12,392 bases of DNA from positions 1-12,392 of the forward strand of contig JBHLPL010000057.1 of the NCBI GenBank assembly GCA_048939465.1. The letters run 5' to 3'. This stretch comes from Promethearchaeota archaeon (GTDB taxonomy: Archaea; Asgardarchaeota; Odinarchaeia; Odinarchaeales; JBHLKK01). The first letter of the stretch is position 1, and each line of letters begins with the position of its first letter. The notes under the pieces are model-generated. The model was given only the letters and a program-made list of their open reading frames with translations. It did not search any database and was not told the DNA's origin. Below are positions 1-12,207 of the stretch, in pieces. The position numbers and the translations under genes were made by a program.

Positions 1-447
1 ACAGGTTGCCTTTACTGTTATCTGGCATGTTCCTATGAGCATTTTGGCGTGTTAAGCCTGTCACTGTCTCATATCAAAATAGTACCTGATGAATCAAAGC
101 CAGGCTATTTCATAGGAATACATTGTGCACATTGTGATGATCCCATATGTGAGGCCTCCTGCCCTGAAGATGCCATTACAAAGGACGAAGAGACCGGGTG
201 GGTTAACATTAACAGAATGAAATGCATCGGATGCAAGACGTGCAACATAATGTGTCCTATTTCCATACCTTGGCGTCACCCTATACAAAAACTCTCCCAT
301 AAATGTGATTTTTGTGAAGGAGATCCCAAATGTGCCAAATTCTGTCCGACTTCAGCCATTATTGTGACAACTAGGCGTGAGGCCGAAGAATACGTAGAAA
401 AGAAACTGGGAATCACGGTGTATGATTCTTACAAAAGCAAGAAATAA
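1..447 (+). CDS. 4x[4Fe-4S] electron-transfer protein, HycB/HydN/CooF/DmsB family (5'-partial)
   Basis: Frame is open from base 1 (ACA GGT TGC CTT TAC TGT TAT CTG GCA TGT = TGCLYCYLAC), so the track start at 49 is internal. Motifs CAHCDDPICEASCP, CIGCKTCNIMCP and KCDFCEGDPKCAKFCP give 15 of the 16 cluster cysteines in the window. Confidence 0.9.
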   Translation, partial: TGCLYCYLACSYEHFGVLSLSLSHIKIVPDESKPGYFIGIHCAHCDDPICEASCPEDAITKDEETGWVNINRMKCIGCKTCNIMCPISIPWRHPIQKLSHKCDFCEGDPKCAKFCPTSAIIVTTRREAEEYVEKKLGITVYDSYKSKK

Positions 448-464
448 GGTGGAAAAGATCCAAA

Positions 465-755
465 ATGAGTAAGGAAACAGAGGAAAAAAAGAGCGTTCCC
501 CTTTACCCTCTGAGAAAAGACAAGGAGTTTATACCAAGTCCTTATCGAGCTGGATTTGAAAGCATACTGGCAATGGCAATGAATAGGGAACTTCCTGATT
601 ACTTCTTAGACGAACGTGATATGCTGGGTCTTGAGGAGATCATCGCAGCCTGGAAAAATGAAAAGGCCCAAAAAGAAATTCAAGAACTGGCAAAAAAACT
701 TGGTCTAGATAAGAAGGTGGCGTTTGACTGGAAAAAGAAGAAGATCAAGTATTAA
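465..755 (+). CDS. Cys-free protein resembling the C-terminal helical region of heterodisulfide reductase subunit C (HdrC-like, no Fe-S domain)
   Basis: 96 aa immediately upstream of hdrB. ERDMLGLEEI...KAQKEIQELAKKLGLDKKVAFDW matches by eye the HdrC tail pattern (R-x-x-LGL-x-E...EV-x-x-I-x-x-x-x-GFD-x-x-V-x-FDW). No cysteines. The ORF is well supported; the family call is tentative. Confidence 0.55.
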   Translation: MSKETEEKKSVPLYPLRKDKEFIPSPYRAGFESILAMAMNRELPDYFLDERDMLGLEEIIAAWKNEKAQKEIQELAKKLGLDKKVAFDWKKKKIKY

Positions 756-768
756 GAGGGTTAAAGCC

Positions 769-1626
769 ATGGCAAAACGACTTGCGTTCTTCTTGGGTTG
801 TGCTCTGCCCTCAGCGCAGCTGTTTGCTGAAGCATCAACCAGATTGAGCTTGCAGGACTTGGGTGTAGAAATTGTTGATCTGGAAGGTGCTACCTGTTGC
901 CCAGACCCTGAAATCTCAAGAACTCTGGGTCCTGACCTATGGATTCGAATGGCTGCCAGAAATCTAGCGCTGGCTGAAGCTGCTAAAGCGGATACTTTTA
1001 CGGTGTGCAATGGGTGTTGGGAAACACTGAGTGAAGCTCAGGAAATGCTCACTAAAGACTCAAAATTACGAGAGGAAGTCAATCGAGATCTAGAGAAGCT
1101 TGGTCTGCGCTATACTGCGAAATTTAAGATATATCACGCAATAGAGGTCTTCCATGATGTTGTCGGTATTGGTGCAGTAGAAAGCATGATTAAGCGCAAG
1201 TTCAAAGGCATAAAACTAGCAATTCAGCCGGGCTGCCGCATCTACAAAAGACCAGAGAAGAATCTTGTAGAGAAAATGCGGAAGTTGGTTCAGGTTTTGG
1301 GTTGCGAAGTAGTCGATCTCCAGCTTGAAAGGCTTTGCTGTGGCGTTCCTTTAATGTATACCGATACTGATTACTCCTTAATGGAGCGAACTAAAGCTAA
1401 GCTTGATGAAATTAGAACCAAATCTGCGCAAGGTATTGTTACTTTTTGTCCTGCTTGTTATGACCGAATGGAAAAAGGTCAGCTAGAGTTAAACACTAGG
1501 GGGGAAAACTACAATATCCCCGTGTTAAGCTATTCTGAGCTTTTGGCGTTCGCATTAGGTCATGAGCCGGACGATTATGGATCATATTTACATAAATTAG
1601 ACTATGCCAAGGTCTTTATGGGGTGA
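769..1626 (+). CDS. hdrB: Heterodisulfide reductase subunit B-like protein (two CCG domains), divergent
   Basis: AFFLGC, ATCCP, TVCNGC, PGC, LCCG and FCPAC supply all ten non-cubane cluster cysteines; also AARNL and NIPVLSYSELLAFALG. ATG 769 after AGAGGG is preferred over TTG 724, which overlaps the previous gene. Confidence 0.9.
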   Translation: MAKRLAFFLGCALPSAQLFAEASTRLSLQDLGVEIVDLEGATCCPDPEISRTLGPDLWIRMAARNLALAEAAKADTFTVCNGCWETLSEAQEMLTKDSKLREEVNRDLEKLGLRYTAKFKIYHAIEVFHDVVGIGAVESMIKRKFKGIKLAIQPGCRIYKRPEKNLVEKMRKLVQVLGCEVVDLQLERLCCGVPLMYTDTDYSLMERTKAKLDEIRTKSAQGIVTFCPACYDRMEKGQLELNTRGENYNIPVLSYSELLAFALGHEPDDYGSYLHKLDYAKVFMG

Positions 1627-3116
1627 AGTATTTGGCCATAGAAGGACTAATACCGTTGATACTTCTGTTGGTGGGTGCGGCTTTAGCCATACCTGTGAAA
1701 ACTGTTTCTGACAAGGCAATGAAAGGTATGCTCGTTACATTGTTTGCAGCAGCATTAGCCTTCAACTCATGGCTAATTTGGAATGTACTGAGTGGAGTCG
1801 CTGAGAGTTATGTAGTGAATGTGTTTGTGGCAAATGGGGCTTCGCTCTTTATTAGCGAAATAATCTTGCTCATTGGTCTCATGTCTCTTTTATATTCTAT
1901 CAAGTTTATGACCGAGGCTCCCCTGAAAACCGGCCTATTCTATGGCGCATTTTCGCTTCTAATGGCAGCGCTGATAGGCACGACACTCGCTGTTGAAGTG
2001 ATTGCACTATACGCGTTCCTAGAAACAATGACCGTGACTTCGGCTGTTCTAGTTTTATATGGGCGGGGAGCATTGCGAGCCACAATGATTTACCTCGTGG
2101 CTGCCATCCTGGGTGCCATACTCGTTCTAGTAGGCGTTTTCTTCATGTACAGTTTTGCCGGTACCACACTCATTACACGTGCGCTCGATTTCCAATTTCT
2201 TACTGATTTTCAAAGACTCCTGATATCGTCCCTTTTCTTTGTAGGCTTCGGGATAAAGGCTGGGATCATACCCTTTGGTTTGCTCTGGGTTCCACCATCG
2301 TATAGTGCTGCCCCGACTCCTATCACCGTGGTTTTAACGGGCATGATAGCAAATGTGGCCATATTCACAATGGCAAAAACGATCTATATCTTTTATCCCC
2401 TTCTAGGCCAGGACGTTTTTACCCTCACAGTATCTAGCATTGGCATCGCAAGCATTCTGGTGGGCGGAATTCTGGCATTCCTCCAAAGCGACATAAAGAA
2501 GTTGCTGGCATATAGTAGTATTTCCCATTATGGATATATCGTTCTCAGTTTGGGTTTGGGAATTGTAAGCTCAGATGCAGGTCTTGCCTTTCTAGGCGTA
2601 GAAGGGGGTTTATTTCATATCCTCAATCATGCTATCTTCAAGAGCCTTCTCTTTCTTGCCATAGGAAACATCATCTTACGTGTAAACACCAAAAACATGC
2701 GAGAAATGGGCGGCCTGTGGAAAAAAATGCCTGTAACACTAATACTATTCCTAATAGGCGTGTTCTCGACGATCGGCCTTATTCCAGGGTTCAATGGCTT
2801 CCAGAGCAAGGAGATAATTCATGAGGCAATTGTGGTATCCGGTATTTCAGTTGTGGAGGGTTTTTCCATATTTGGAATACTTGCATATATTGGAAGTGGA
2901 ATCACAGTCTTATATCTCGCAAGGGCTGTCTGGGAAATATTCTTGAAGAAACCCAAAAACCCGTCTCGCAATAATAAGGTGAAAGAAGCTCCTATAGCCA
3001 TGTTGGTTCCCATAGCGATTTTGGCCGTACTTTGCATTGCAATTGGTGTTTTTCCTGAAATTATCGCAGGTTTCCTGGATCGTGCTTCCGAAGTTTTAGG
3101 AGGATTGATTAGCTAA
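1623..3116 (+). CDS. Antiporter-like proton-translocating membrane subunit (MrpD/MbhH/NuoM-N/HycC family)
   Basis: 497 aa, strongly hydrophobic. Motifs FLE (TM5 Glu), GIKAG...W (TM7 Lys), KKLLAYSSISHYG, FHILNHAIFKSLLFL, GFNGFQSKE and KEAPIAMLVP. GTGA overlap with the hdrB stop. Confidence 0.92.
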   Translation: MKYLAIEGLIPLILLLVGAALAIPVKTVSDKAMKGMLVTLFAAALAFNSWLIWNVLSGVAESYVVNVFVANGASLFISEIILLIGLMSLLYSIKFMTEAPLKTGLFYGAFSLLMAALIGTTLAVEVIALYAFLETMTVTSAVLVLYGRGALRATMIYLVAAILGAILVLVGVFFMYSFAGTTLITRALDFQFLTDFQRLLISSLFFVGFGIKAGIIPFGLLWVPPSYSAAPTPITVVLTGMIANVAIFTMAKTIYIFYPLLGQDVFTLTVSSIGIASILVGGILAFLQSDIKKLLAYSSISHYGYIVLSLGLGIVSSDAGLAFLGVEGGLFHILNHAIFKSLLFLAIGNIILRVNTKNMREMGGLWKKMPVTLILFLIGVFSTIGLIPGFNGFQSKEIIHEAIVVSGISVVEGFSIFGILAYIGSGITVLYLARAVWEIFLKKPKNPSRNNKVKEAPIAMLVPIAILAVLCIAIGVFPEIIAGFLDRASEVLGGLIS

Positions 3117-3457
3117 TGAATGAGGAAGAGAAAGAATCGAAGTTCGAGGGTAAACGGCCAGGCAAGGTGTGGCGAAAGGATGTGCTACCGTTGACTGTGG
3201 CTATGGTAATCCTGACATTGGGAAGTTTAGGATTCATATTTGCCCGAAATTTGCTGGAGTTTTTCCTGCTTGCTGAACTCGTTGCAGTGGCCACTTTCTT
3301 CATATTGTTTAGCGTACTGATACCATCACTGTTTCCAGAAGAGGTGAAGACTGAAGAGATTTTTACTGGCGGTGCTGCTAAGGCTCCATACATAAGTGAC
3401 GATGAGGTCCTCAGACCTGTCATTCCCTTTTTGGAAGAGGAGGAAGATAAAAGCTAG
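3116..3457 (+). CDS. Small membrane protein (2 predicted TM helices), possibly NuoA/MbhI-related accessory subunit
   Basis: 113 aa, TAATG overlap with the previous gene. Two hydrophobic segments followed by KTEEIFTGG, reminiscent of the NuoA TM1-2 loop/MbhI loop, and an acidic C-terminus. Confidence 0.6.
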   Translation: MNEEEKESKFEGKRPGKVWRKDVLPLTVAMVILTLGSLGFIFARNLLEFFLLAELVAVATFFILFSVLIPSLFPEEVKTEEIFTGGAAKAPYISDDEVLRPVIPFLEEEEDKS

Positions 3458-3469
3458 GATGAATAGAAG

Positions 3470-5209
3470 ATGTCCAAAAGGAAAAGAAAGACTAGAAGAC
3501 GCGGTATAGCAGTCGGTATCTTGAATGAATTGAAAAAAATCCTCGGCAAGGATTATTTGGAAGAGTATTCAAGAGGTCAAAATAGAATATATGTGCGAAC
3601 CACATCTGATCATATTGCCGGTATTGTTGAATTCATGTTAAAGAAGGATGCTAGGCTTGCTCACATCACCACGTCTGACTTAGGTCTCCGCGGATTTGAC
3701 GTCCTATATCATTATGCACTAGATCATATTGAGCAAAACCTGCACATAGTCATAAAAGTGGGGGTGGAGAGAGACAAGCCTGAATTACCATCAGTGACTC
3801 CAATAACTTGGCAGGCATCCTATGCAGAGAGAGAGAACATGGATCTAATGGGGGTGAAATTCCTAAATCACCCTGATCCGCGACATTTATTCCTGCCCTA
3901 TGAATGGCCAGAGAAAGTAGAAGGCGGAAAGTTTGATGAGAATCAAGCAGTTGGAAGAACCGATGTTTCAAAAGAAGAAATTCGTGAAAGTGCCGGCAAA
4001 TGGGTCCCGCTCTCTATTACTCCGAAGGATGCCAAGCTCACGTTAATACCAATCGGCCCCTATCATCCAATGCTCATTGAAAGCGAGTATTTCAGGTTAA
4101 AAGTGAATGGGGAAGAGGTGGTTGATGCTGATCTGAAGCTGGGCTTTAACCACAGAGGCATAATGAAATTGGCTGAAGAAAGAACATTCTGGAGAGATAT
4201 ATACCTAGTTGAGAGAACCTGTGGAATCTGCAATGCAACACACTCAACAGCGTACTGTACTGCTGTAGAAGAAATAATGGGGGCAGACCTCCCCGATAGG
4301 GCTAGGTACATCCGAACCCTGATACTGGAGCTTGAACGTCTTCATAGCCATCTCTTGTGGTTCGGGGTTGCTGGAGACCTGATAGGCTTCAAAACACTAT
4401 TCATGTGGGCCTGGCGAGATCGTGAACATGTCTTAGATATTTTTGAAACCATTACAGGCGGTCGTGTCTATCACTGTATGAATGTGATTGGCGGTGTTAA
4501 GCACGATATGAAAGAATCTTGGTATCCGAAAATCGAAAAGGGTGTAAGAATAGCCAAAGATGCTGTCTTGAAGTATATCGAAATGGCTTATGACCATCCA
4601 ATTCTGAAGGCTAGAACTGAAGATATTGGAGTCATGTCAACCGCTGCTGCCAGAGACATGGGAGCGGTTGGCCCGACTGCAAGAGGCAGCGATTGGAAGA
4701 TTGACGCACGATGGTCAGATCATCATGCAGCTTACGCTCCGGAATATACCTCATGGGACCCAGTCGTTGAGTCTGGAGGTGACGTGTGGGCAAGGGTTGT
4801 TGTAAGGCTGAAAGAAATGCTTGTTTCTGCGGAGCTTTGTGATCAGTGTCTGGATGCATTGAAACGTACTGGGGGACCGATCACATCGGAATTGGATTAC
4901 ATTCCTGAGGGTGAAGGAATAGCCAAAACAGAGGCACCTCGGGGGGAATTGTACTATTATGTGGTTTCGGATGGAACTGCAGTGCCTCAAACAGTAAGAA
5001 TCAGAACTCCCAGCTATCGAAATGACGCCTGTCTTCCTTTAATGGTCAAAGGCTATACGCTGGCGGATGCTCCAATCATCATTGGAAGCATAGACCCTTG
5101 CTTCTCTTGCTCAGACAGAATGGTAGTTATAGAAGATGAGAAGACAGGGAACATCAAAAGAGACTTACTGGGAAATCTCGTCAAGAGGTTCAATGAGAGA
5201 AGGATGTGA
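3470..5209 (+). CDS. Group 4 [NiFe]-hydrogenase large subunit 1, fused NuoC+NuoD (HycE-type architecture)
   Basis: NuoC-like N-terminus (ERENMDLMGVKFLNHP), GPYHP, HRG, L1 ERTCGICNATH (4211-4243), EAPRGE, RTPS, L2 DPCFSCSDR (5093-5119) followed by a 29-aa C-terminal extension. Confidence 0.95.
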   Translation: MSKRKRKTRRRGIAVGILNELKKILGKDYLEEYSRGQNRIYVRTTSDHIAGIVEFMLKKDARLAHITTSDLGLRGFDVLYHYALDHIEQNLHIVIKVGVERDKPELPSVTPITWQASYAERENMDLMGVKFLNHPDPRHLFLPYEWPEKVEGGKFDENQAVGRTDVSKEEIRESAGKWVPLSITPKDAKLTLIPIGPYHPMLIESEYFRLKVNGEEVVDADLKLGFNHRGIMKLAEERTFWRDIYLVERTCGICNATHSTAYCTAVEEIMGADLPDRARYIRTLILELERLHSHLLWFGVAGDLIGFKTLFMWAWRDREHVLDIFETITGGRVYHCMNVIGGVKHDMKESWYPKIEKGVRIAKDAVLKYIEMAYDHPILKARTEDIGVMSTAAARDMGAVGPTARGSDWKIDARWSDHHAAYAPEYTSWDPVVESGGDVWARVVVRLKEMLVSAELCDQCLDALKRTGGPITSELDYIPEGEGIAKTEAPRGELYYYVVSDGTAVPQTVRIRTPSYRNDACLPLMVKGYTLADAPIIIGSIDPCFSCSDRMVVIEDEKTGNIKRDLLGNLVKRFNERRM

Positions 5210-6321
5210 GAAAAATGCCTGTGATGATCTTATTAACGATAGCTGCTTGCATAGTTATACCTATTGTTGCATTCTTTGGCGGAGTTCTATGCTGGTTTGC
5301 CATTAGAAAGTTTACTGCTAGGATGCAGGCCAGATTAGGACCTTTGTTGTCTGTCCCGAAACCACTAAGACCTGTAGTCGGTTCCACACGTATACTTCAG
5401 CCTTTCTGGGATATCTTGAAGCTTTTTTATAAAGAAAGCGTAATACCTGCAACTGCCAGAAAGAGACTGTTTGTCACAATGCCCTACGTCGCTTTGATCT
5501 GCACTATTTTGGTCACGTGGTTTATTCCGATAGCTGGGGTATCTCCCTTTGATCAGTTCTCGTTCAGTTTGCTGGTTGTTATGTACCTAATGGTTGTGGT
5601 TCCTCTGGCGTTTGTGGTCGGTGGTGTTGCTAGTTCTTCTCCGTGGGGTGTGCTAGGGAGTTCGAGGGAGGTCAAACTGGTTTTGGCCTATGAAATTCCC
5701 TTTGTGCTAGGTGTGTTTTCAGTTGCGCTGATGGCAGGCTTTCCTGCCGCCAGTGGCGATCTTTTGCCTAGTCTTCCCGGAACACTCTCTCTGGCTGAGT
5801 TGGTAGTCTTTCAGACCGCGCATCAGCTGAACTTTTTTGGAGTTCTGCTGCCAGCATGGTTCATCATCCTCAATCCGTTCTCTGCAGCTGCGGTCTTCCT
5901 TAGCTTAATTGGGAAAATTGGACTGAAACCTATGGATATTTCAGACGCAGAAGTTGAAATAGTGGCTGGAGCTTACACTGAATATAGCGGGAAGCTACTA
6001 GGAATCCACGAAATGGTGCACACATTCCTACTGTTCATAACAACGACACTGTTCGTGGATCTCTTTCTCGGGGGAGGTGCAGTTCGCGTACCATTCTTTG
6101 GAATACCCTCATTAGTGTGGTCCATAATCGTTTACGCAATAATGATGGTGATAACTCTTCTTGTCCTGTCAATTGTAAATACGGCAAATCCTAGGTTTAG
6201 AATCGACCAAGCCTTCAAATGGTATCTGAAGCTTCCTCTGGCATTGGCAATAATTGGGCTGGCTTGGACCTACATTTTTGCCAGCTCTATGATTAACGTT
6301 CCTGGTATAGGTATAACATAG
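5206..6321 (+). CDS. NuoH/HycD/MbhM-like membrane anchor subunit 1
   Basis: ARMQARLGP, LQPFWDILKLFYKE, SREVKLVLAYE, DISDAEVEIVAGAYTEYSG, PRFRIDQ. GTG 5206 overlaps the upstream stop; ATG 5215 is an alternative start. Confidence 0.93.
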   Translation: MRKMPVMILLTIAACIVIPIVAFFGGVLCWFAIRKFTARMQARLGPLLSVPKPLRPVVGSTRILQPFWDILKLFYKESVIPATARKRLFVTMPYVALICTILVTWFIPIAGVSPFDQFSFSLLVVMYLMVVVPLAFVVGGVASSSPWGVLGSSREVKLVLAYEIPFVLGVFSVALMAGFPAASGDLLPSLPGTLSLAELVVFQTAHQLNFFGVLLPAWFIILNPFSAAAVFLSLIGKIGLKPMDISDAEVEIVAGAYTEYSGKLLGIHEMVHTFLLFITTTLFVDLFLGGGAVRVPFFGIPSLVWSIIVYAIMMVITLLVLSIVNTANPRFRIDQAFKWYLKLPLALAIIGLAWTYIFASSMINVPGIGIT

Positions 6322-6333
6322 GAGAAATGAATA

Positions 6334-6945
6334 ATGGTTAAAGGAAAACTCAAGCTTCTGAAGGAGGCAATCAAGAGCCTGTTTAATCCGGTCACCATAG
6401 GCTATCCTGCCGGAGACCCCGACCTGGATTATGCAGAACCACACTTTGGGACAGAATCCAAATACAGCACCGTAGCTGAAGAACTCCGTGGCAAACATAA
6501 ATGGGATCCTGAGAAGTGCACTGGCTGCGGAGCTTGCAGTTCCTGTTGTAGTAGTCTCTGCCTTCTTTACGAAGACAGGGATGATGGAAAACGTCATCTC
6601 TGGGTCCATCTAGGTAGATGTATTTTCTGTGGTCGATGTGAGTACGTATGTCCTGATGATGCCCTTGACTTGACACCCGAATTTGAACTAAACTATGAAG
6701 GAGACAAAGAGAGCGAAGAATCATTTGTTAGGCATGAGGTAGAACTCGAGGTATGCAGCAATTGTGGACACTATGTTGCTCCAAAGCTGCAAATTGAGAG
6801 ATACTCGCAAAAAGTTCTGGATGATATTCATCCTGCTGTCAAGGATGCAGTCAAAGAGGACTTGGAGAAGATTTCTAAGCTCTGTGTGGACTGCAGAAGA
6901 AAGCTTGCTTATGAGCAAAATCTTCACACTCGGAAATACTACTGA
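6334..6945 (+). CDS. NuoI/HycF-like 2x[4Fe-4S] subunit with extra C-terminal four-Cys site
   Basis: TIGYP...LRG, CTGCGACSSCC, CIFCGRCEYVCP, plus CSNC and CVDCRR. GGAG upstream. Confidence 0.92.
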   Translation: MVKGKLKLLKEAIKSLFNPVTIGYPAGDPDLDYAEPHFGTESKYSTVAEELRGKHKWDPEKCTGCGACSSCCSSLCLLYEDRDDGKRHLWVHLGRCIFCGRCEYVCPDDALDLTPEFELNYEGDKESEESFVRHEVELEVCSNCGHYVAPKLQIERYSQKVLDDIHPAVKDAVKEDLEKISKLCVDCRRKLAYEQNLHTRKYY

Positions 6946-6956
6946 AGGAGGATGGA

Positions 6957-7403
6957 ATGATGGGTCTAAAACAGAAAGCAAGAGCTTACTCACCATGGGT
7001 ATTCCACGCACACTGCGGTGGATGCAACGGCTGTGATATAGAAATAGCTGCGCTTTTTAACCCGAGATTTGATGTAGAGAGGTTTGGTATTCAACTCAAA
7101 AATAATCCCCGGCATGCAGACATACTAGTTGTAGATGGTATACTTCCAAAACAAACAGCCTACTTCCTAAAACGTGTGTATAATCAGACTCCTGACCCCA
7201 AAGCTGTAGTTGCAGTAGGTGCTTGTGCAATTACCGGTGGGGTATTTGCTAGTGATGATGAAACTAGGCCTAATTACTCCCAAGCAGGACCTACTGACAG
7301 GGTACTTCCAGTTGATGTTTATGTTCCGGGTTGTCCGCCGAAGCCCGAAGCAATAATAGAAGGCATAGTACGAGCGATAATAGCATTGAGTAAGAAAAAA
7401 TGA
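6957..7403 (+). CDS. Group 4 [NiFe]-hydrogenase small subunit 1 (NuoB/HycG-like)
   Basis: HycG-type CGGCNGCDIE, ERFG, PRHAD, GAC, VPGCPP. GGAGG at 6947-6951. Confidence 0.95.
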   Translation: MMGLKQKARAYSPWVFHAHCGGCNGCDIEIAALFNPRFDVERFGIQLKNNPRHADILVVDGILPKQTAYFLKRVYNQTPDPKAVVAVGACAITGGVFASDDETRPNYSQAGPTDRVLPVDVYVPGCPPKPEAIIEGIVRAIIALSKKK

Positions 7404-7511: not shown

Positions 7512-7525
7512 AGGTGTTGAGGAAT

Positions 7526-8140
7526 ATGCATCTCAATTTGAAGGAGGGTGAATACCTAATTAGATTTGCAAGAAAGAGTATAGAAACCTATTTGACAACC
7601 GGAGAAAGACTAAAGACCCCCGAAGATGCCCCGAAGATACTCTACGAAAAACGCGGTGTATTCGTTACTCTCCAGAGAATCCTTGAAGATGAGAAACGAC
7701 TCAGAGGTTGCATAGGTTTTATTGTCCCTCAATATTCGCTTATCGAAGCCACGTCTCACTCTTCCATCAGTGCGGCCGTAGATGACCCGAGGTTTCCACC
7801 CGTGGAATTTGATGAGTTGAAAAGAATCGCAATTGAAGTAAGTGTTCTGACTCCTGCCCAACTGGTGAAGATCAGTAGGCCTGAAGACTACCTATCGAAA
7901 ATAAAGGTCGGTCGTGATGGTCTAATTGCAAAGCTCGGGTGGAAAACCGGAGTGTTACTACCTCAGGTACCGGTAGAATATGGCTGGAATGAGGAGAAAT
8001 TTATGAGGCAAACATGCATAAAGGCGTTTTTGCCGCAGGATGCATGGAAAGAAGACGGTTTTGAATTATATTCCTTTCAGTCCCAAATCTTCGAGGAGAA
8101 ATTCCCTAACGGAGAAGTGGAAGAACGCTTCATAACTTAG
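7526..8140 (+). CDS. AMMECR1-domain protein (archaeal type)
   Basis: RGVFVTL, LRGCIG, AAVDDPRFPPV, EVSVLT, GRDGLI, LLPQVPVEYGW. ATG 7526 follows GAGG and is preferred over GTG 7514. Confidence 0.93.
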   Translation: MHLNLKEGEYLIRFARKSIETYLTTGERLKTPEDAPKILYEKRGVFVTLQRILEDEKRLRGCIGFIVPQYSLIEATSHSSISAAVDDPRFPPVEFDELKRIAIEVSVLTPAQLVKISRPEDYLSKIKVGRDGLIAKLGWKTGVLLPQVPVEYGWNEEKFMRQTCIKAFLPQDAWKEDGFELYSFQSQIFEEKFPNGEVEERFIT

Positions 8141-8239: not shown

Positions 8240-8566
8240 ATGAGTTTGATACTTGCTGTGCCTATTGCGTTCATAATATGTCTGATAGCAGTCGGATTTA
8301 TTTATCTTCTCGGAAGAAAAATGGCTCCTCCAAGCAGGAAGAAGGGTGAAGCTGTGTTAACGTATGCTTGCGGCGAAGACATAGATCAAGAGAAAATCCA
8401 GTTCAAGGTAAACTGGCTTTACTATGCGATCTACTTCGTCATCTTCGACATAATTGCATTTACGCTTTCTCTATCCATTCAGCTTGGTGTACTCGAATCG
8501 GTCCTTATGGCGGTTACGTACTCATTCGTAGCACTCGTGGCAATACTAGTACTCCTAAGACGATAG
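8240..8566 (+). CDS. NuoA/FpoA-like 3-TM membrane subunit
   Basis: TM1, loop TYACGE, then YYAIYFVIFDII and a third hydrophobic helix; 108 aa. Confidence 0.85.
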   Translation: MSLILAVPIAFIICLIAVGFIYLLGRKMAPPSRKKGEAVLTYACGEDIDQEKIQFKVNWLYYAIYFVIFDIIAFTLSLSIQLGVLESVLMAVTYSFVALVAILVLLRR

Positions 8567-8579
8567 AGGTGAATCAATA

Positions 8580-9032
8580 ATGGGATTATTAAAAAGGCTG
8601 GTTGACTGGTCAAGGCGCAAATCACCCTGGCTTCTCCACTTCAACTCTGGAAGCTGTAATTGCTGTGATATTGAGATTTTGGCATCTTTAATGCCCAGAT
8701 TTGACCTAGAACGATTTGGAGTTCTTCTTAAAGGCAGTCCGAGACATGCGGACGTACTTGTATGCACAGGTCCTGTTACGTTACAACAAGAAAAACGCTT
8801 AAGGAGGATCTATGAACAAACACCGGCCCCTAAGTTCGTTATGGTGGTAGGAACGTGTGGAAGTACAGGAGGAGTCTTCAGAGGCTGTTATCATACTCAC
8901 AAAGGTATTGATAATATTATTCCGGTCGATGTCTATGTTCCCGGCTGCCCTCCAAGACCTGAGTCTATACTGTTTGGGGCCGTGAAACTTCTTCAGAAAC
9001 TAGAAGCAGTTCAAAAAGGTGAAAAAGCATGA
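8580..9032 (+). CDS. Group 4 [NiFe]-hydrogenase small subunit 2 (NuoB/MbhJ-like)
   Basis: SPW, GSCNCCDIE, ERFG, SPRHAD, TGPVT, GTC, VPGCPPRPE. Confidence 0.95.
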   Translation: MGLLKRLVDWSRRKSPWLLHFNSGSCNCCDIEILASLMPRFDLERFGVLLKGSPRHADVLVCTGPVTLQQEKRLRRIYEQTPAPKFVMVVGTCGSTGGVFRGCYHTHKGIDNIIPVDVYVPGCPPRPESILFGAVKLLQKLEAVQKGEKA

Positions 9033-10762
9033 CTGTAGAAACTGAAATGGGTGAGGAAGTACTTCTAAAAGAATTCCCTCAAGAGTGGGAAATTGTCCAA
9101 TCGCTGCGGGAGGCACTGGGAGATAAATTTGTGGCCAGCAAAATTCCGCGGAAGCGCAGAGTCTACGTCTCGGTTACTGAGGAAGCCCATCGTGAAGCCG
9201 CCAAACAACTCAAGGCAATGGGTATATGGTATACTCCCACCATCGTTGCTTTGGATCTCAAGGATAAATTTGAAGTCCTCTTCCAGTTTTTTGATAAAGA
9301 GAGAAATGTACATATTGCAATAAGAACTCCGGTTTCGAAAGATAAGCCTGAGCTGGAAACGATAACGGATCTCTTTCCCGGAACCATATTCTATGAGCGT
9401 GAAGTTCATGACTTATTTGGGATTGTTTTCAGAAACCATCCCAATTTAGTGAAACTGCTACTGGCAGATACTTGGCCTGCAGACGAATACCCTCTAAGAA
9501 AGGATTGGAAACCCTCGGCTAAGAAAGTCAAGTCCCGAAGAAAAATACCTCTGGTTACAGCGGGAGAATTCCTTATTGAAGTTGGGCCTCAGACTCCAAC
9601 GCTGAAAGAACCAATGAACTTCGAAGTCATTGCAGACGGAGAAGTTGTGGTTGATATAATTCCTCACTTGGAGTATAACCACCGAGGTATTGAAAAGGCC
9701 ATGGAGCAACGGACTTTCACCCAAGGAATTTACCTTAGTGAACGCGTCTGCGGTATATGCAGTCAACCTCACGCATTCACATTCTGTAGTGCTGTTGAGA
9801 GGTTGCTGGACGTCGATGTACCAAGAAGAGGACAGTACATCAGAACTATGGTTTATGAGATGAACAGAATCCACAGCCACCTTTTGTGGGTAGGCGTTGC
9901 TGCACATCTGATTGGCTGGGATACCTTATTCATGTATACATGGCGTGACCGTGAGGTTATTTTGGATATGACAGAGCTTATTACCGGTGGCCGCTTAACT
10001 GGTGCAATAAACACGATAGGCGGAGCCAGAAGAGACATAAATGACGATCAAATACACAAGCTTCGCAAGGGCTTAGATGTCCTGGAAGAACGTACAAGAG
10101 CGTACAAGAAAATTGCTCTAAATGAAGATACACTGATAAAAAGATGTCTTGGCGTAGGCATTATGAAGCCTGAGCTAGCCAGGAACTTTGCTGCGGTTGG
10201 ACCGACCATCAGGGGATCCGGAATAAAAGCTGATCTTCGTTGGGACGATCCGGAACATGGGTGTTATGATGAGCTTTCAGATGTATTCACTCCTGCAACA
10301 TCGGACTTATGTGACGTTGCTGGAAGGCTAATCGTTCGTGTAGATGAAACATTAGAATCAGTCAACATGATTCGCTGGATCCTTGACCATTTGCCAAGTG
10401 GACCAGTGAGAAAAAGAGTGCCCAGAAGGGTTCCAAGGAATGAGGCTGTCGGAAGAACTGAAGCTCCTCGAGGGGAAGTTTATTATTACATGATGTCTAA
10501 TAACACGGACAAGCCTGAACGTGTAAAGATAAAAACACCGACGATAGCAAACATTCCTGCGTTCGTTGAATCCACAAAGGGACTTTACATTGCAGACTTC
10601 GTGATCAACTTTGGCAGTATTGATCCATGCATCGCGTGTACCTGCAGAACAACAATTACCGATATAAGCCACCCGAGAAATCCAAAGCGACGTGTTATGT
10701 CGCATGAGGAATTGAGGAAGTATGGCATAGACTGGTATGAAGACCGAAAATGGAGGAAATAA
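9029..10762 (+). CDS. Group 4 [NiFe]-hydrogenase large subunit 2, fused NuoC+NuoD
   Basis: EREVHDLFGIVFRNHP, YPLRKD, HRGIEK, L1 ERVCGICSQPH (9740-9772), EAPRGE, KTPT, L2 DPCIACTCR (10622-10648) plus a 37-aa extension. ATGA overlap with the small subunit gene. Confidence 0.95.
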   Translation: MTVETEMGEEVLLKEFPQEWEIVQSLREALGDKFVASKIPRKRRVYVSVTEEAHREAAKQLKAMGIWYTPTIVALDLKDKFEVLFQFFDKERNVHIAIRTPVSKDKPELETITDLFPGTIFYEREVHDLFGIVFRNHPNLVKLLLADTWPADEYPLRKDWKPSAKKVKSRRKIPLVTAGEFLIEVGPQTPTLKEPMNFEVIADGEVVVDIIPHLEYNHRGIEKAMEQRTFTQGIYLSERVCGICSQPHAFTFCSAVERLLDVDVPRRGQYIRTMVYEMNRIHSHLLWVGVAAHLIGWDTLFMYTWRDREVILDMTELITGGRLTGAINTIGGARRDINDDQIHKLRKGLDVLEERTRAYKKIALNEDTLIKRCLGVGIMKPELARNFAAVGPTIRGSGIKADLRWDDPEHGCYDELSDVFTPATSDLCDVAGRLIVRVDETLESVNMIRWILDHLPSGPVRKRVPRRVPRNEAVGRTEAPRGEVYYYMMSNNTDKPERVKIKTPTIANIPAFVESTKGLYIADFVINFGSIDPCIACTCRTTITDISHPRNPKRRVMSHEELRKYGIDWYEDRKWRK

Positions 10763-10763
10763 G

Positions 10764-11810
10764 ATGGTGCTGGAGGCAATTCTCGACATAGTCCAAATCT
10801 TACTTTTCCCGGGAATACTCTTTTGCCTAACTTTGGCACTCTTTTATTCGTGGATAGATAGGAAATATCATGCTGACCTGCAAAATCGAATGGGACCTAC
10901 ATACACTGGTTGGCGAGGGATACTGCAGCCTTTTGCAGACTTCATAAAACTTATGGCAAAAGAAGATATTACGCCGGCAGCAGCAGATAGGAGAAGCTTT
11001 GCCGCTGTACCAGCCGTGATGCTGGCGGTTCCTTTCCTAGGTCTTCTATTCATTCCGATTAGCAATATAGTTGGGATAATTAGCTTTCCTGGCGATATTG
11101 TGTTTCTGATGTTCTTATCGACCATAATCGCAATTTTGATCTTCCTTGCAGGATGGTTCTCAACGAACGTATTCAGTGACATTGGAGCTACAAGAGCTGT
11201 GCTGCAGCTGATAGGATACGAGATACCGTTTATGATAGCGGCATTCTCTCCGGCTATTCTGGCTGGTTCACTTACACTTGCTCAGGTAATCGAATACCAG
11301 GCCACCAACGGCTTGATGCTTTTCCAATTCCCGGCTATATATCAAAGCATTCCTATGTGGGTTGCTTTTGGTGTCTATATGATAGCACTGATGGCTGAAC
11401 TTGAGAAAATACCTTTAGATATTCCGGAAGCAGAAACCGAAATTGTTGCGGGATGGCAGACTGAATATTCGGGCAAGAAATATGCATTCTTGGTTCTGTC
11501 GAATGATCTTCATATGCTATTTGGAGCAGGTCTTGTGGTAACCTTGTTCTTAGGAGGACCCTTTGGAATCGAAAAACTGCCAGGGCTGGCCGGCCTAAAT
11601 GCGTTTATTTCGACGACACCCATAATAAGAGAGCTTTGGTACACAGGATGGTTCATATTGAAGGCTGCTATTGTAGTGCTGGTAATTTCAAACATCAGAA
11701 CTCTATTTGCGCGATACAGAGTCGATCAGATGATTCGCGGATCGTGGAAATATCTTGCACCAACCGCCTTGATAGGAGTGATATTGATTCAACTCTTCAG
11801 TTTAATCTAA
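10764..11810 (+). CDS. NuoH/HycD/MbhM-like membrane anchor subunit 2
   Basis: QNRMGP, GILQPFADFIKLMAKE, LIGYE, DIPEAETEIVAGWQTEYSG, ARYRVDQ. ATG 10764 follows GGAGG (10752-10756) and is preferred over track start 10737. Confidence 0.94.
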   Translation: MVLEAILDIVQILLFPGILFCLTLALFYSWIDRKYHADLQNRMGPTYTGWRGILQPFADFIKLMAKEDITPAAADRRSFAAVPAVMLAVPFLGLLFIPISNIVGIISFPGDIVFLMFLSTIIAILIFLAGWFSTNVFSDIGATRAVLQLIGYEIPFMIAAFSPAILAGSLTLAQVIEYQATNGLMLFQFPAIYQSIPMWVAFGVYMIALMAELEKIPLDIPEAETEIVAGWQTEYSGKKYAFLVLSNDLHMLFGAGLVVTLFLGGPFGIEKLPGLAGLNAFISTTPIIRELWYTGWFILKAAIVVLVISNIRTLFARYRVDQMIRGSWKYLAPTALIGVILIQLFSLI

Positions 11811-11817
11811 GAAGGTG

Positions 11818-12207
11818 ATGTTAATGCCTTTCCCCGGAGCTATGCAAGCAGAATTGTTGAGACATCTCACAAAAAAGAGAGCAACTCTGCTCTATCCATT
11901 TGAGAAGCTGGATTTACCCGAGGCGTATAGAGGTCGATGGTCTCACGATATGGCTAAATGCACCGGCTGTGGTCTCTGTGCAAAGGATTGTCCAAGTGAA
12001 GCCATACAGCTAGTTGAAACAGATATAACGCCAGGAGGCAGATACCCCGTTTGCTACCTGAGTAGATGCATGTTTTGCGCTCAGTGTCAAGATACTTGCC
12101 CTACAGGTGCTATCCAGCTAACAAACGAGTATGAGCTCGCTGATTATCAGAAAAGAATCATCGATAGCAACGTACCCGAAGGATTTAGATACGAAAAGAG
12201 TAAATAA
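11818..12207 (+). CDS. NuoI/MbhN/EchF-like 2x[4Fe-4S] subunit 2
   Basis: ATLLYPFEK...YRG, CTGCGLCAKDCP, CMFCAQCQDTCP. Start could be GTG 11815, ATG 11818 or ATG 11824 (AGGTGA Shine-Dalgarno favours 11824). Confidence 0.93.
   Translation: MLMPFPGAMQAELLRHLTKKRATLLYPFEKLDLPEAYRGRWSHDMAKCTGCGLCAKDCPSEAIQLVETDITPGGRYPVCYLSRCMFCAQCQDTCPTGAIQLTNEYELADYQKRIIDSNVPEGFRYEKSK

Follow-up and report, generated by a model that had tools for sequence, protein, structure and literature searches.

An Ehd-like operon in an Odinarchaeales genome: group 4 hydrogenase genes joined to a probable disulfide reductase module

The window considered here is a complete 12,392-bp contig (JBHLPL010000057.1) from the genome of a Promethearchaeota archaeon of the order Odinarchaeales, whose assembly (GCA_048939465.1) spans 1.96 Mb and is 91% complete. 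Positions 1-7403 hold nine genes, g1 to g9, all on the + strand and spaced by −4 to +17 nucleotides; the following gene starts 110 nucleotides beyond g9. Two adjacent pairs share a GTGA overlap of stop and start codons: hdrB (g3), whose TGA overlaps the GTG start of the antiporter gene (g4); and, likewise, the large-subunit and NuoH-like genes (g6 and g7). With a probability of about 0.6, the products of all nine form a single membrane complex of the kind called Ehd-like, after the Ehd cluster of Methanomethylicia: a group 4 energy-converting [NiFe] hydrogenase carrying a disulfide reductase module.

Genes g4 to g9 encode the hydrogenase and its membrane arm. The large subunit, g6 (3470-5209), is a NuoC-NuoD fusion of HycE-like form that matches Complex1_30kDa, NiFeSe_Hases, and Complex1_49kDa. 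It carries the Ni-Fe ligand motifs L1 (RTCGICNATH) and L2 (DPCFSCSDR), which hold all four Ni-binding cysteines, and a C-terminal extension comes after L2; its best solved match is Escherichia coli HycE (7z0s_E, 288 bits), then P. furiosus MbhL. Its companions are a NuoB/HycG-like small subunit for the proximal cluster (g9, 6957-7403; Oxidored_q6, E 5e-35), with cysteines at 20, 23, 26, 90, and 126, including a GCPP motif; a NuoI/HycF-like two-[4Fe-4S] subunit (g8, 6334-6945; Fer4 families), which matches the NCBIfam formate hydrogenlyase Fe-S subunit at E 9e-29, below that model's cut-off; a NuoH/HycD-like membrane subunit (g7, 5206-6321; Pfam NADHdh, E 8e-59); and an antiporter-like membrane subunit of the MbhH/HycC/NuoL-M-N type (g4, 1623-3116; Proton_antipo_M, E 3e-46). 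This combination of NuoB-, NuoI-, and NuoH-type subunits with an antiporter-like one (Oxidored_q6, Fer4, NADHdh, and Proton_antipo_M) is that of a group 4 hydrogenase operon. (The C-terminal half of g8 also holds two extra CxxC pairs, Cys141/144 and Cys184/187, possibly ligands of a further metal site.)

The best solved match of the antiporter-like subunit is MbhH (6cfw_H). Aligned with it, g4 keeps the glutamate of transmembrane helix (TM) 5 and the lysine motifs of TM7, TM8, TM11, and TM12; in complex I and Mbh, these charged residues define the ion channels of the antiporter family. The remaining membrane protein, g5 (3116-3457), is a subunit of 113 residues with two to three hydrophobic helices by hydropathy and a weak NuoK-like match (Oxidored_q2, E 0.004); orthologues are present in all related clusters that have membrane arms. 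Maturation genes lie elsewhere in the genome, encoding HypD (445 bits) and a HycI-type protease (42 bits, over the cut-off).

The operon opens with g1 (1-447), which encodes a HycB-like four-[4Fe-4S] ferredoxin (Pfam Fer4_11, E 4e-14). Its 16 cysteines fall in four CxxCxxCxxxC-type motifs, and are invariant or nearly so in ten orthologues. The nearest solved relatives are the Fe-S subunits of AOR/WOR5, HDCR HycB3, and E. coli HycB; the general four-cluster family also takes in FdnH. The contig end truncates g1 at its 5' side, and the 19 missing first codons are found on contig C49 of the same assembly, whose end is the reverse complement of window positions 1-98 with one mismatch. There, the ATG is preceded by GAGG and then by about 180 nucleotides of non-coding DNA, which is read as a divergent promoter region. 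Beyond it lie divergent genes, among them those for a YdjM-like membrane protein, Ogg, a GlcD-like protein, and an HdrD-like protein. The join is supported by a 78-kb contig of a sister metagenome-assembled genome (MAG), which shows a matching divergent layout minus the GlcD-like/HdrD-like pair. (That pair, at C49 1866-4432, comprises a GlcD-like FAD-linked oxidase and an HdrD-like protein with Fer4_8 and two CCG domains, divergent from the operon and absent at that place in the sister MAG.)

One candidate for the true partner of the HycB-like protein was an upstream Mo/W oxidoreductase or carbon monoxide dehydrogenase. It is rejected: next to the operon the flank holds the short intergenic stretch and then the divergent genes just listed, and the sister MAG is likewise divergent. 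Neither a Mo/W enzyme nor a carbon monoxide dehydrogenase adjoins the operon in the window and the recovered upstream flank, and no hdrA is present in the window or in 15 kb of that flank. The HycB-like protein thus opens the operon with no alternative catalytic partner in view. An earlier note on this DNA, made from its letters alone, had described a tight run of genes containing counterparts of all six Hyc structural subunits, the GTGA overlap at the end of hdrB, and no hdrA in view. All of this is present, the last now also for the flank retrieved through C49. To speak of Hyc counterparts is fair, given that the large subunit, among solved structures, matches HycE best and MbhL next.

Seventeen nucleotides after g1 comes orf96 (g2, 465-755), a frame of 96 amino acids that has no Pfam match. 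It contains no cysteine at all, and hence lacks the two-[4Fe-4S] ferredoxin domain of HdrC. Judged by homology, it is a free-standing counterpart of the C-terminal, non-cluster tail of that protein, the identity that the earlier note had proposed. Three comparisons bear this out. Alone, orf96 matches HdrC 5odc_C over residues 138-183, the last 45 residues (phmmer E 0.012), including the G/AFDW end motif. A syntenic profile of seven orthologues matches the C-terminal extension of HdrC 8rvu_c, residues 123-181, at E 5e-6. Finally, orf96 aligns with residues 134-194 of the 199-aa HdrC encoded in its own genome (hhalign probability 89%). Many genomes of the phylum also contain frames of about 185-230 amino acids, presumed full-length HdrC genes, whose C-termini match a ten-row profile of the orf96 family. 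The position of orf96 is the same in every related cluster.

The third gene encodes an HdrB-like catalytic subunit (g3, 769-1626; two Pfam CCG domains). Its start is likelier to be the ATG at 769, which has an upstream GAGGG, than the TTG at 724 given by the program that listed the open reading frames (ORFs). Over its full length the protein can be aligned with solved HdrB subunits, scoring 155-167 bits (167 bits with 5odc_B). It has two complete CCG motifs, and all 10 of its cysteines are invariant in ten orthologues; the two motifs point to two non-cubane [4Fe-4S] sites.

The linkage between hdrB and the hydrogenase genes, on which the earlier note had rested its reading, is conserved. Searches seeded with HdrB, the large subunit, and the tail ORF recovered the cluster from the sister MAG, of the same genus (81-92% amino acid identity); two Odinarchaeia MAGs of the same order as the window's genome; three Bathyarchaeia MAGs; one Baldrarchaeota MAG, without the antiporter gene; a MAG labelled Methanomethylicota, with the Ehe-type neighbours SdhA, HdrA2B2C2, and GcvH; and Methanomethylicus mesodigestus, where it is Ehd. 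Gene order varies among these lineages and the gene set stays together. Relatives of the large subunit at 42-62% identity are HdrB-linked in every case checked. No Mo/W formate dehydrogenase gene was found in the window, its upstream flank, or the checked flanks of relatives. In every member examined, including the published Ehd, HdrC is split into a four-cluster wire and a tail ORF.

In a large-subunit tree built without 4a-4i references, the window's protein pairs with that of the sister MAG, and the Odinarchaeia, Bathyarchaeia, Baldrarchaeota, Ehe-type, and Ehd clades join them through an unresolved backbone. A second hydrogenase encoded in the window, described below, falls far outside. 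Two database labels sit oddly with these relationships. A large subunit labelled [Eubacterium] cellulosolvens (P0096) nests within a Bathyarchaeia clade, and its record is probably contaminated or mislabelled. The sister MAG contig JBHLKK010000002.1 is labelled Candidatus Hodarchaeota at NCBI, a label that looks inconsistent: by genome search, it shares its genus with the window's genome and its order with the two Odinarchaeia MAGs.

Might the HycB-like protein dock on HdrB, as the earlier note expected? Complex prediction used the complete proteins of the sister MAG (80-91% identical to the window's over aligned rows) and our own alignments; these proteins were chosen because the window's g1 lacks its first 19 codons, which include residues at the predicted interface. 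The HycB-like protein against HdrB plus orf96 scored 0.83, compared with 0.48 for the best control; of 80 solved complexes, 58 attained this mark, as did two of 110 mismatched pairs. At least 78% of contacts recurred between runs, and the partner pLDDT was at least 86. In the predicted interface, the first and last cysteine motifs of the HycB-like protein face the second CCG motif of HdrB, which in the model is the geometry needed for electron transfer. Attachment of the HycB-like protein to HdrB and orf96 is supported by the model, though not shown by it. Since solved structures have HdrC's ferredoxin domain lying on HdrB, the passing score may owe something to that resemblance and is, to that extent, not independent evidence.

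These results suggest a path for electrons. H2 would be split at the NuoCD-type large subunit; electrons would pass through the NuoB-like proximal cluster and the two clusters of the NuoI/HycF-like subunit; the HycB-like protein would next carry them over its four [4Fe-4S] clusters; and, on reaching the two non-cubane clusters of HdrB, they would reduce a disulfide to two thiols. The HycB-like protein would stand in for the two-cluster ferredoxin domain of HdrC, and orf96 would be the retained HdrC tail that clamps HdrB. The redox drop from H2 to disulfide would drive export of H+ or Na+, coupled through the NuoH-like, small membrane, and single antiporter-like subunits. The disulfide reductase module would thereby replace the formate dehydrogenase or ferredoxin site as the point of electron input or output. 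Which way the electrons run, which substrate they reach, and how ions are coupled are inferred, as is the union of all nine proteins in one complex. Most likely, the enzyme oxidizes H2 and couples this to ion export and to the reduction of a disulfide other than CoM-S-S-CoB. A membrane-bound, probably ion-translocating H2:disulfide oxidoreductase that does without HdrA, much as first proposed, is the best-supported reading, in view of the conserved linkage, the lack of a Mo/W enzyme or carbon monoxide dehydrogenase upstream, the HdrC-tail homology, and the predicted docking. Published accounts read the Ehd/Ehd-like clusters (PMC9723716) and the Asgard 4l/4q hydrogenases (10.1101/2024.07.04.601786) in this way too.

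Several observations weigh against this reading. The class of HdrB-linked hydrogenases is known from its genes, and both the direction of flow and its coupling to ions are argued from thermodynamics and motifs only. In the membrane arm there is a single antiporter-like subunit, and its WLPxAH motif of TM7 is degenerate. HdrB scores 201.6 bits against NCBIfam TIGR03288, below the cut-off of 345.15. The substrate pocket differs as well. In 5ODR, HdrB contacts CoM-S-S-CoB through Arg14, Gly46, Gly198, Arg201, and Arg240 (PMC13261682); the window's protein has Ala16, Glu48, Leu195, Thr198, and Lys236 at these five positions, so that only the conservative lysine is left. Finally, no mcrA gene or McrA match was found in the 91%-complete genome.

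With no mcrA and four of the five contact residues lost, the substrate is probably not CoM-S-S-CoB but another disulfide. The pocket is altered in the same way elsewhere: among eight aligned non-methanogen relatives, all have glutamate in place of Gly46, none has arginine at the Arg14 position, and the signature is of the CCP(D/E)PEIS type. The Methanomethylicus Ehd protein keeps lysine, glycine, and arginine at three of the five positions. The shared change in non-methanogen members, read from aligned residues, supports a different substrate.

How does this operon relate to known systems? Ehd of Methanomethylicia/Verstraetearchaeota owes its name to Borrel et al. 2019, whom Kohtz et al. 2022 (PMC9723716) cite and whose cluster they redraw. 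Kohtz et al. treat Ehd, Ehe, Drh, Ehg, and "Ehd-like" clusters together as group 4 hydrogenases that interact with HdrB, and propose that these clusters, in methanogens and non-methanogens, couple H2 and disulfide with ion translocation. The Ehd of Methanomethylicus mesodigestus contains the same nine gene families as the window, including the Fer4_11 four-cluster protein, the HdrC-tail ORF, and HdrB. Its small ORF, of 116 amino acids, is homologous to orf96 (hhalign probability 96%), and the function proposed for the Ehd complex is the one proposed here. There are differences: the membrane genes come first in Ehd; the two large subunits are 45% identical and belong to separate, well-supported clades joined through the unresolved backbone; and the window's host, with no mcrA, is not a methanogen, unlike that of Ehd sensu stricto. 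In the window, hdrB and an HdrC-derived gene are co-located with group 4 hydrogenase and antiporter genes, as in Ehd-like clusters; lacking a McrA match, the cluster is filed as Ehd-like, not Ehd.

The "Ehd-like" clusters of Bathyarchaeia, Methanomethylicia, and Culexarchaeia have an HdrB-linked group 4 core in non-methanogens and an HdrB pocket that shares the CCP(D/E)PEIS-type signature and the lack of arginine at the Arg14 position; Bathyarchaeia large subunits are 50-61% identical to the window's. Ehe of Culexarchaeia has adjacent SdhA, HdrA2B2C2, and GcvH, none of which adjoins the window's operon. The host phylum here, Asgardarchaeota, differs from those of the Ehd-like and Ehe clusters in Kohtz et al. 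2022. For Asgard archaea, Appler et al. 2024 (10.1101/2024.07.04.601786) describe hydrogenases of groups 4l and 4q, from Odinarchaeia and further deep-branching classes, to which a heterodisulfide reductase domain is attached peripherally. These match the window in their Mbh-like composition plus Hdr module and in host order, a likeness by description only; a split of HdrC into four-cluster protein and tail ORF is not mentioned in section 7 of that paper.

Two better-studied enzymes frame the comparison. E. coli formate hydrogenlyase (Hyc, group 4a; 7Z0S) has one-to-one counterparts of HycB, C, D, E, F, and G in the window. The four-cluster protein, however, is partnered here by HdrB and the HdrC tail rather than by the Mo enzyme FdhF; it is closer to AOR/WOR5-type Fe-S subunits than to HycB; and the window has an extra small membrane subunit. 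The soluble HdrABC-MvhAGD complex (5ODC, 8RVU) has in common with the window the HdrB fold, all cluster cysteines, and the HdrC tail, whereas the window's operon lacks HdrA and flavin-based bifurcation, has the ferredoxin domain of HdrC replaced, is joined to a membrane-bound hydrogenase, and has changed residues in the substrate pocket.

It follows that one part of the earlier proposal does not hold. Ehd was named there as a precedent, which it is, and the window was then set apart as a distinct version because of its HdrC without Fe-S clusters, its tetracluster protein, and its divergent HdrB. Ehd has a Fer4_11 gene, a homologous small ORF, and HdrB, and Asgard hydrogenases with an Hdr module appear in Appler et al. 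2024. Features thought distinctive are general to the HdrB-linked class, and the case foreseen as removing novelty, identity with an already described Ehd-HdrBC cluster, essentially holds.

Of the readings that compete with H2-driven disulfide reduction, the first keeps the complex and runs it mainly in reverse: a dithiol (a dihydrolipoyl-type carrier or a thiol pool filled by HdrABC) would be oxidized and H2 released, venting reducing equivalents. This is unlikely. Group 4 hydrogenases typically evolve H2, and reverse operation would be feasible at very low syntrophic H2 pressures or if driven by an ion gradient; for typical disulfides, however, the reaction is uphill (about −140 to −290 mV, against −414 mV for H2). 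Besides a group 3 hydrogenase, the genome encodes a large soluble Hdr cluster that includes canonical HdrC genes; its CCG proteins number six and its MvhD-type domains three. The soluble Hdr/MvhD clusters and the group 3 hydrogenase could govern the balance between thiol and disulfide. As to direction, Kohtz et al. (PMC9723716) do not commit themselves.

The soluble Hdr cluster itself lies on contig C56 (2653-12844), with two HdrC-HdrB pairs, a polyferredoxin, three HdrA-like genes (one of them MvhD-fused), and a separate MvhD. Given its canonical HdrC genes, the organism has both canonical and split HdrC.

A further point in favour of reversal is an orphan GcvH paralogue that keeps the lipoyl lysine. 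It adjoins an arginyl-tRNA synthetase gene (contig C49 11900-14412; L005:5889-8530), in a pair syntenic with Odinarchaeia, and is 36% identical to the canonical GcvH, which adjoins GcvT on contig C46. Its distance to the operon is 3 kb in Odinarchaeia and 14 kb here, and in the Ehe-type cluster it is directly adjacent. Yet the tie to the operon is not specific: in a small sample of ten genomes, orthologues at 49% identity or more are present in two of the five genomes without the operon and missing from two of the five with it, and in two genomes the gene lies near a canonical HdrC instead. As a specific operon partner, the orphan GcvH is therefore rejected, and is kept as a low-probability lead.

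The second competing reading accepts the complex and disputes the chemistry: the CCG protein would not be a disulfide reductase, but would act on another kind of substrate on record for proteins with CCG domains, for instance fumarate/succinate-type substrates, a hydroxy acid, or a sulfur/persulfide carrier (as in sHdr or DsrK), making the whole an H2:X oxidoreductase. The replacement of four of the five CoM-S-S-CoB contacts, including the invariant glutamate at Gly46 in non-methanogen members, would fit, as would weaker NCBIfam matches to SdhE, LdhH, TfrB, and GlcF, and the SdhA that adjoins Ehe-type clusters. True HdrB subunits are nonetheless the best full-length matches, at 155-167 bits against at most 87 bits for other CCG families; the HdrC-tail partner is specific to HdrBC; and the operon contains no SdhA, lactate, or glycolate enzyme. 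We regard this reading as improbable.

About as improbable is a ferredoxin-dependent hydrogenase like Mbh or Ech, in which the HycB-like protein would be the ferredoxin entry and HdrB a side branch or regulator, for instance in redox sensing or ferredoxin/thiol confurcation. Four-cluster proteins often gather electrons from several partners, and the antiporter subunit is closest to MbhH. Mbh and Ech, however, take ferredoxin without a four-cluster protein. Moreover, across large phylogenetic distances the hydrogenase genes are strictly accompanied by those for HdrB, the tail ORF, and the four-cluster protein, and the predicted interface would put HdrB at the end of the cluster chain. The Mbh-like composition of deep-Asgard complexes, as given by Appler et al. 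2024, speaks for this alternative. Finally, that g1-g3 and g4-g9 are only neighbours, or co-transcribed, and encode two separate enzymes finds some encouragement in the differing gene order between lineages, and is very improbable, since the two sets stay together despite shuffling in at least six lineages (some with hdrB directly before the large-subunit gene), stop/start overlaps join them, and an HdrB module without the hydrogenase would have no electron donor.

The operon's neighbours include a second, apparently intact group 4 hydrogenase (window 8240-12207), in the complex I order NuoA, NuoB, NuoCD, NuoH, and NuoI, whose NuoCD carries the motifs CGIC and DPCIACTCR. This cluster ends after NuoI, both here and in the sister MAG. 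On the other side, contig C49 (8499-10965) encodes a membrane module of a NuoJ-like protein, a 93-aa protein, a NuoK-like protein, and a NuoL-like protein, about 8.5-11 kb upstream of the operon and in the same orientation after the join. With this NuoJKL-like module upstream and the second hydrogenase downstream, the Ehd-like operon sits between the halves of a complex-I-like gene set. A gene for a small GTPase of the Arf/Ras family adjoins the NuoJKL-like module (contig C49 11236-11637; sister MAG contig JBHLKK010000002.1 79-762). Between the two hydrogenase clusters of the window lies a lone AMMECR1-family gene (7514-8140), with a gap of about 100 nucleotides on each side; it is kept at that position in the sister MAG, at 81% identity.

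The operon is real, intact, and conserved, and adds one copy to a published kind. The questions of substrate, direction, and ion coupling are already posed in the literature, and this copy raises no new one. With it, the known occurrences reach a second lineage, at genus level, within the Odinarchaeia order, one found in mangrove and sediment metagenomes, and two details are added: HdrC is split in every member examined; and the altered pocket is common to the non-methanogen members.

A more speculative idea, to which we give little credence, is that the non-methanogen HdrB has been re-tuned for a disulfide other than that of CoM and CoB, protein-bound or not, such as the lipoyl arm carried by the orphan GcvH, in a reversible reaction through which fermenters could dump thiol electrons as H2 with ion exchange. 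Re-tuning of this sort would show as the invariant CCP(D/E)PEIS signature together with the loss of the arginines that hold CoB. If true, it would be a new link between lipoyl/thiol carriers and chemiosmosis in fermenters of amino acids or oxo acids. For the family as a whole, HdrB-linked membrane hydrogenases would represent a simple form of energy conservation from H2 and a disulfide, one that dispenses with flavin-based bifurcation.

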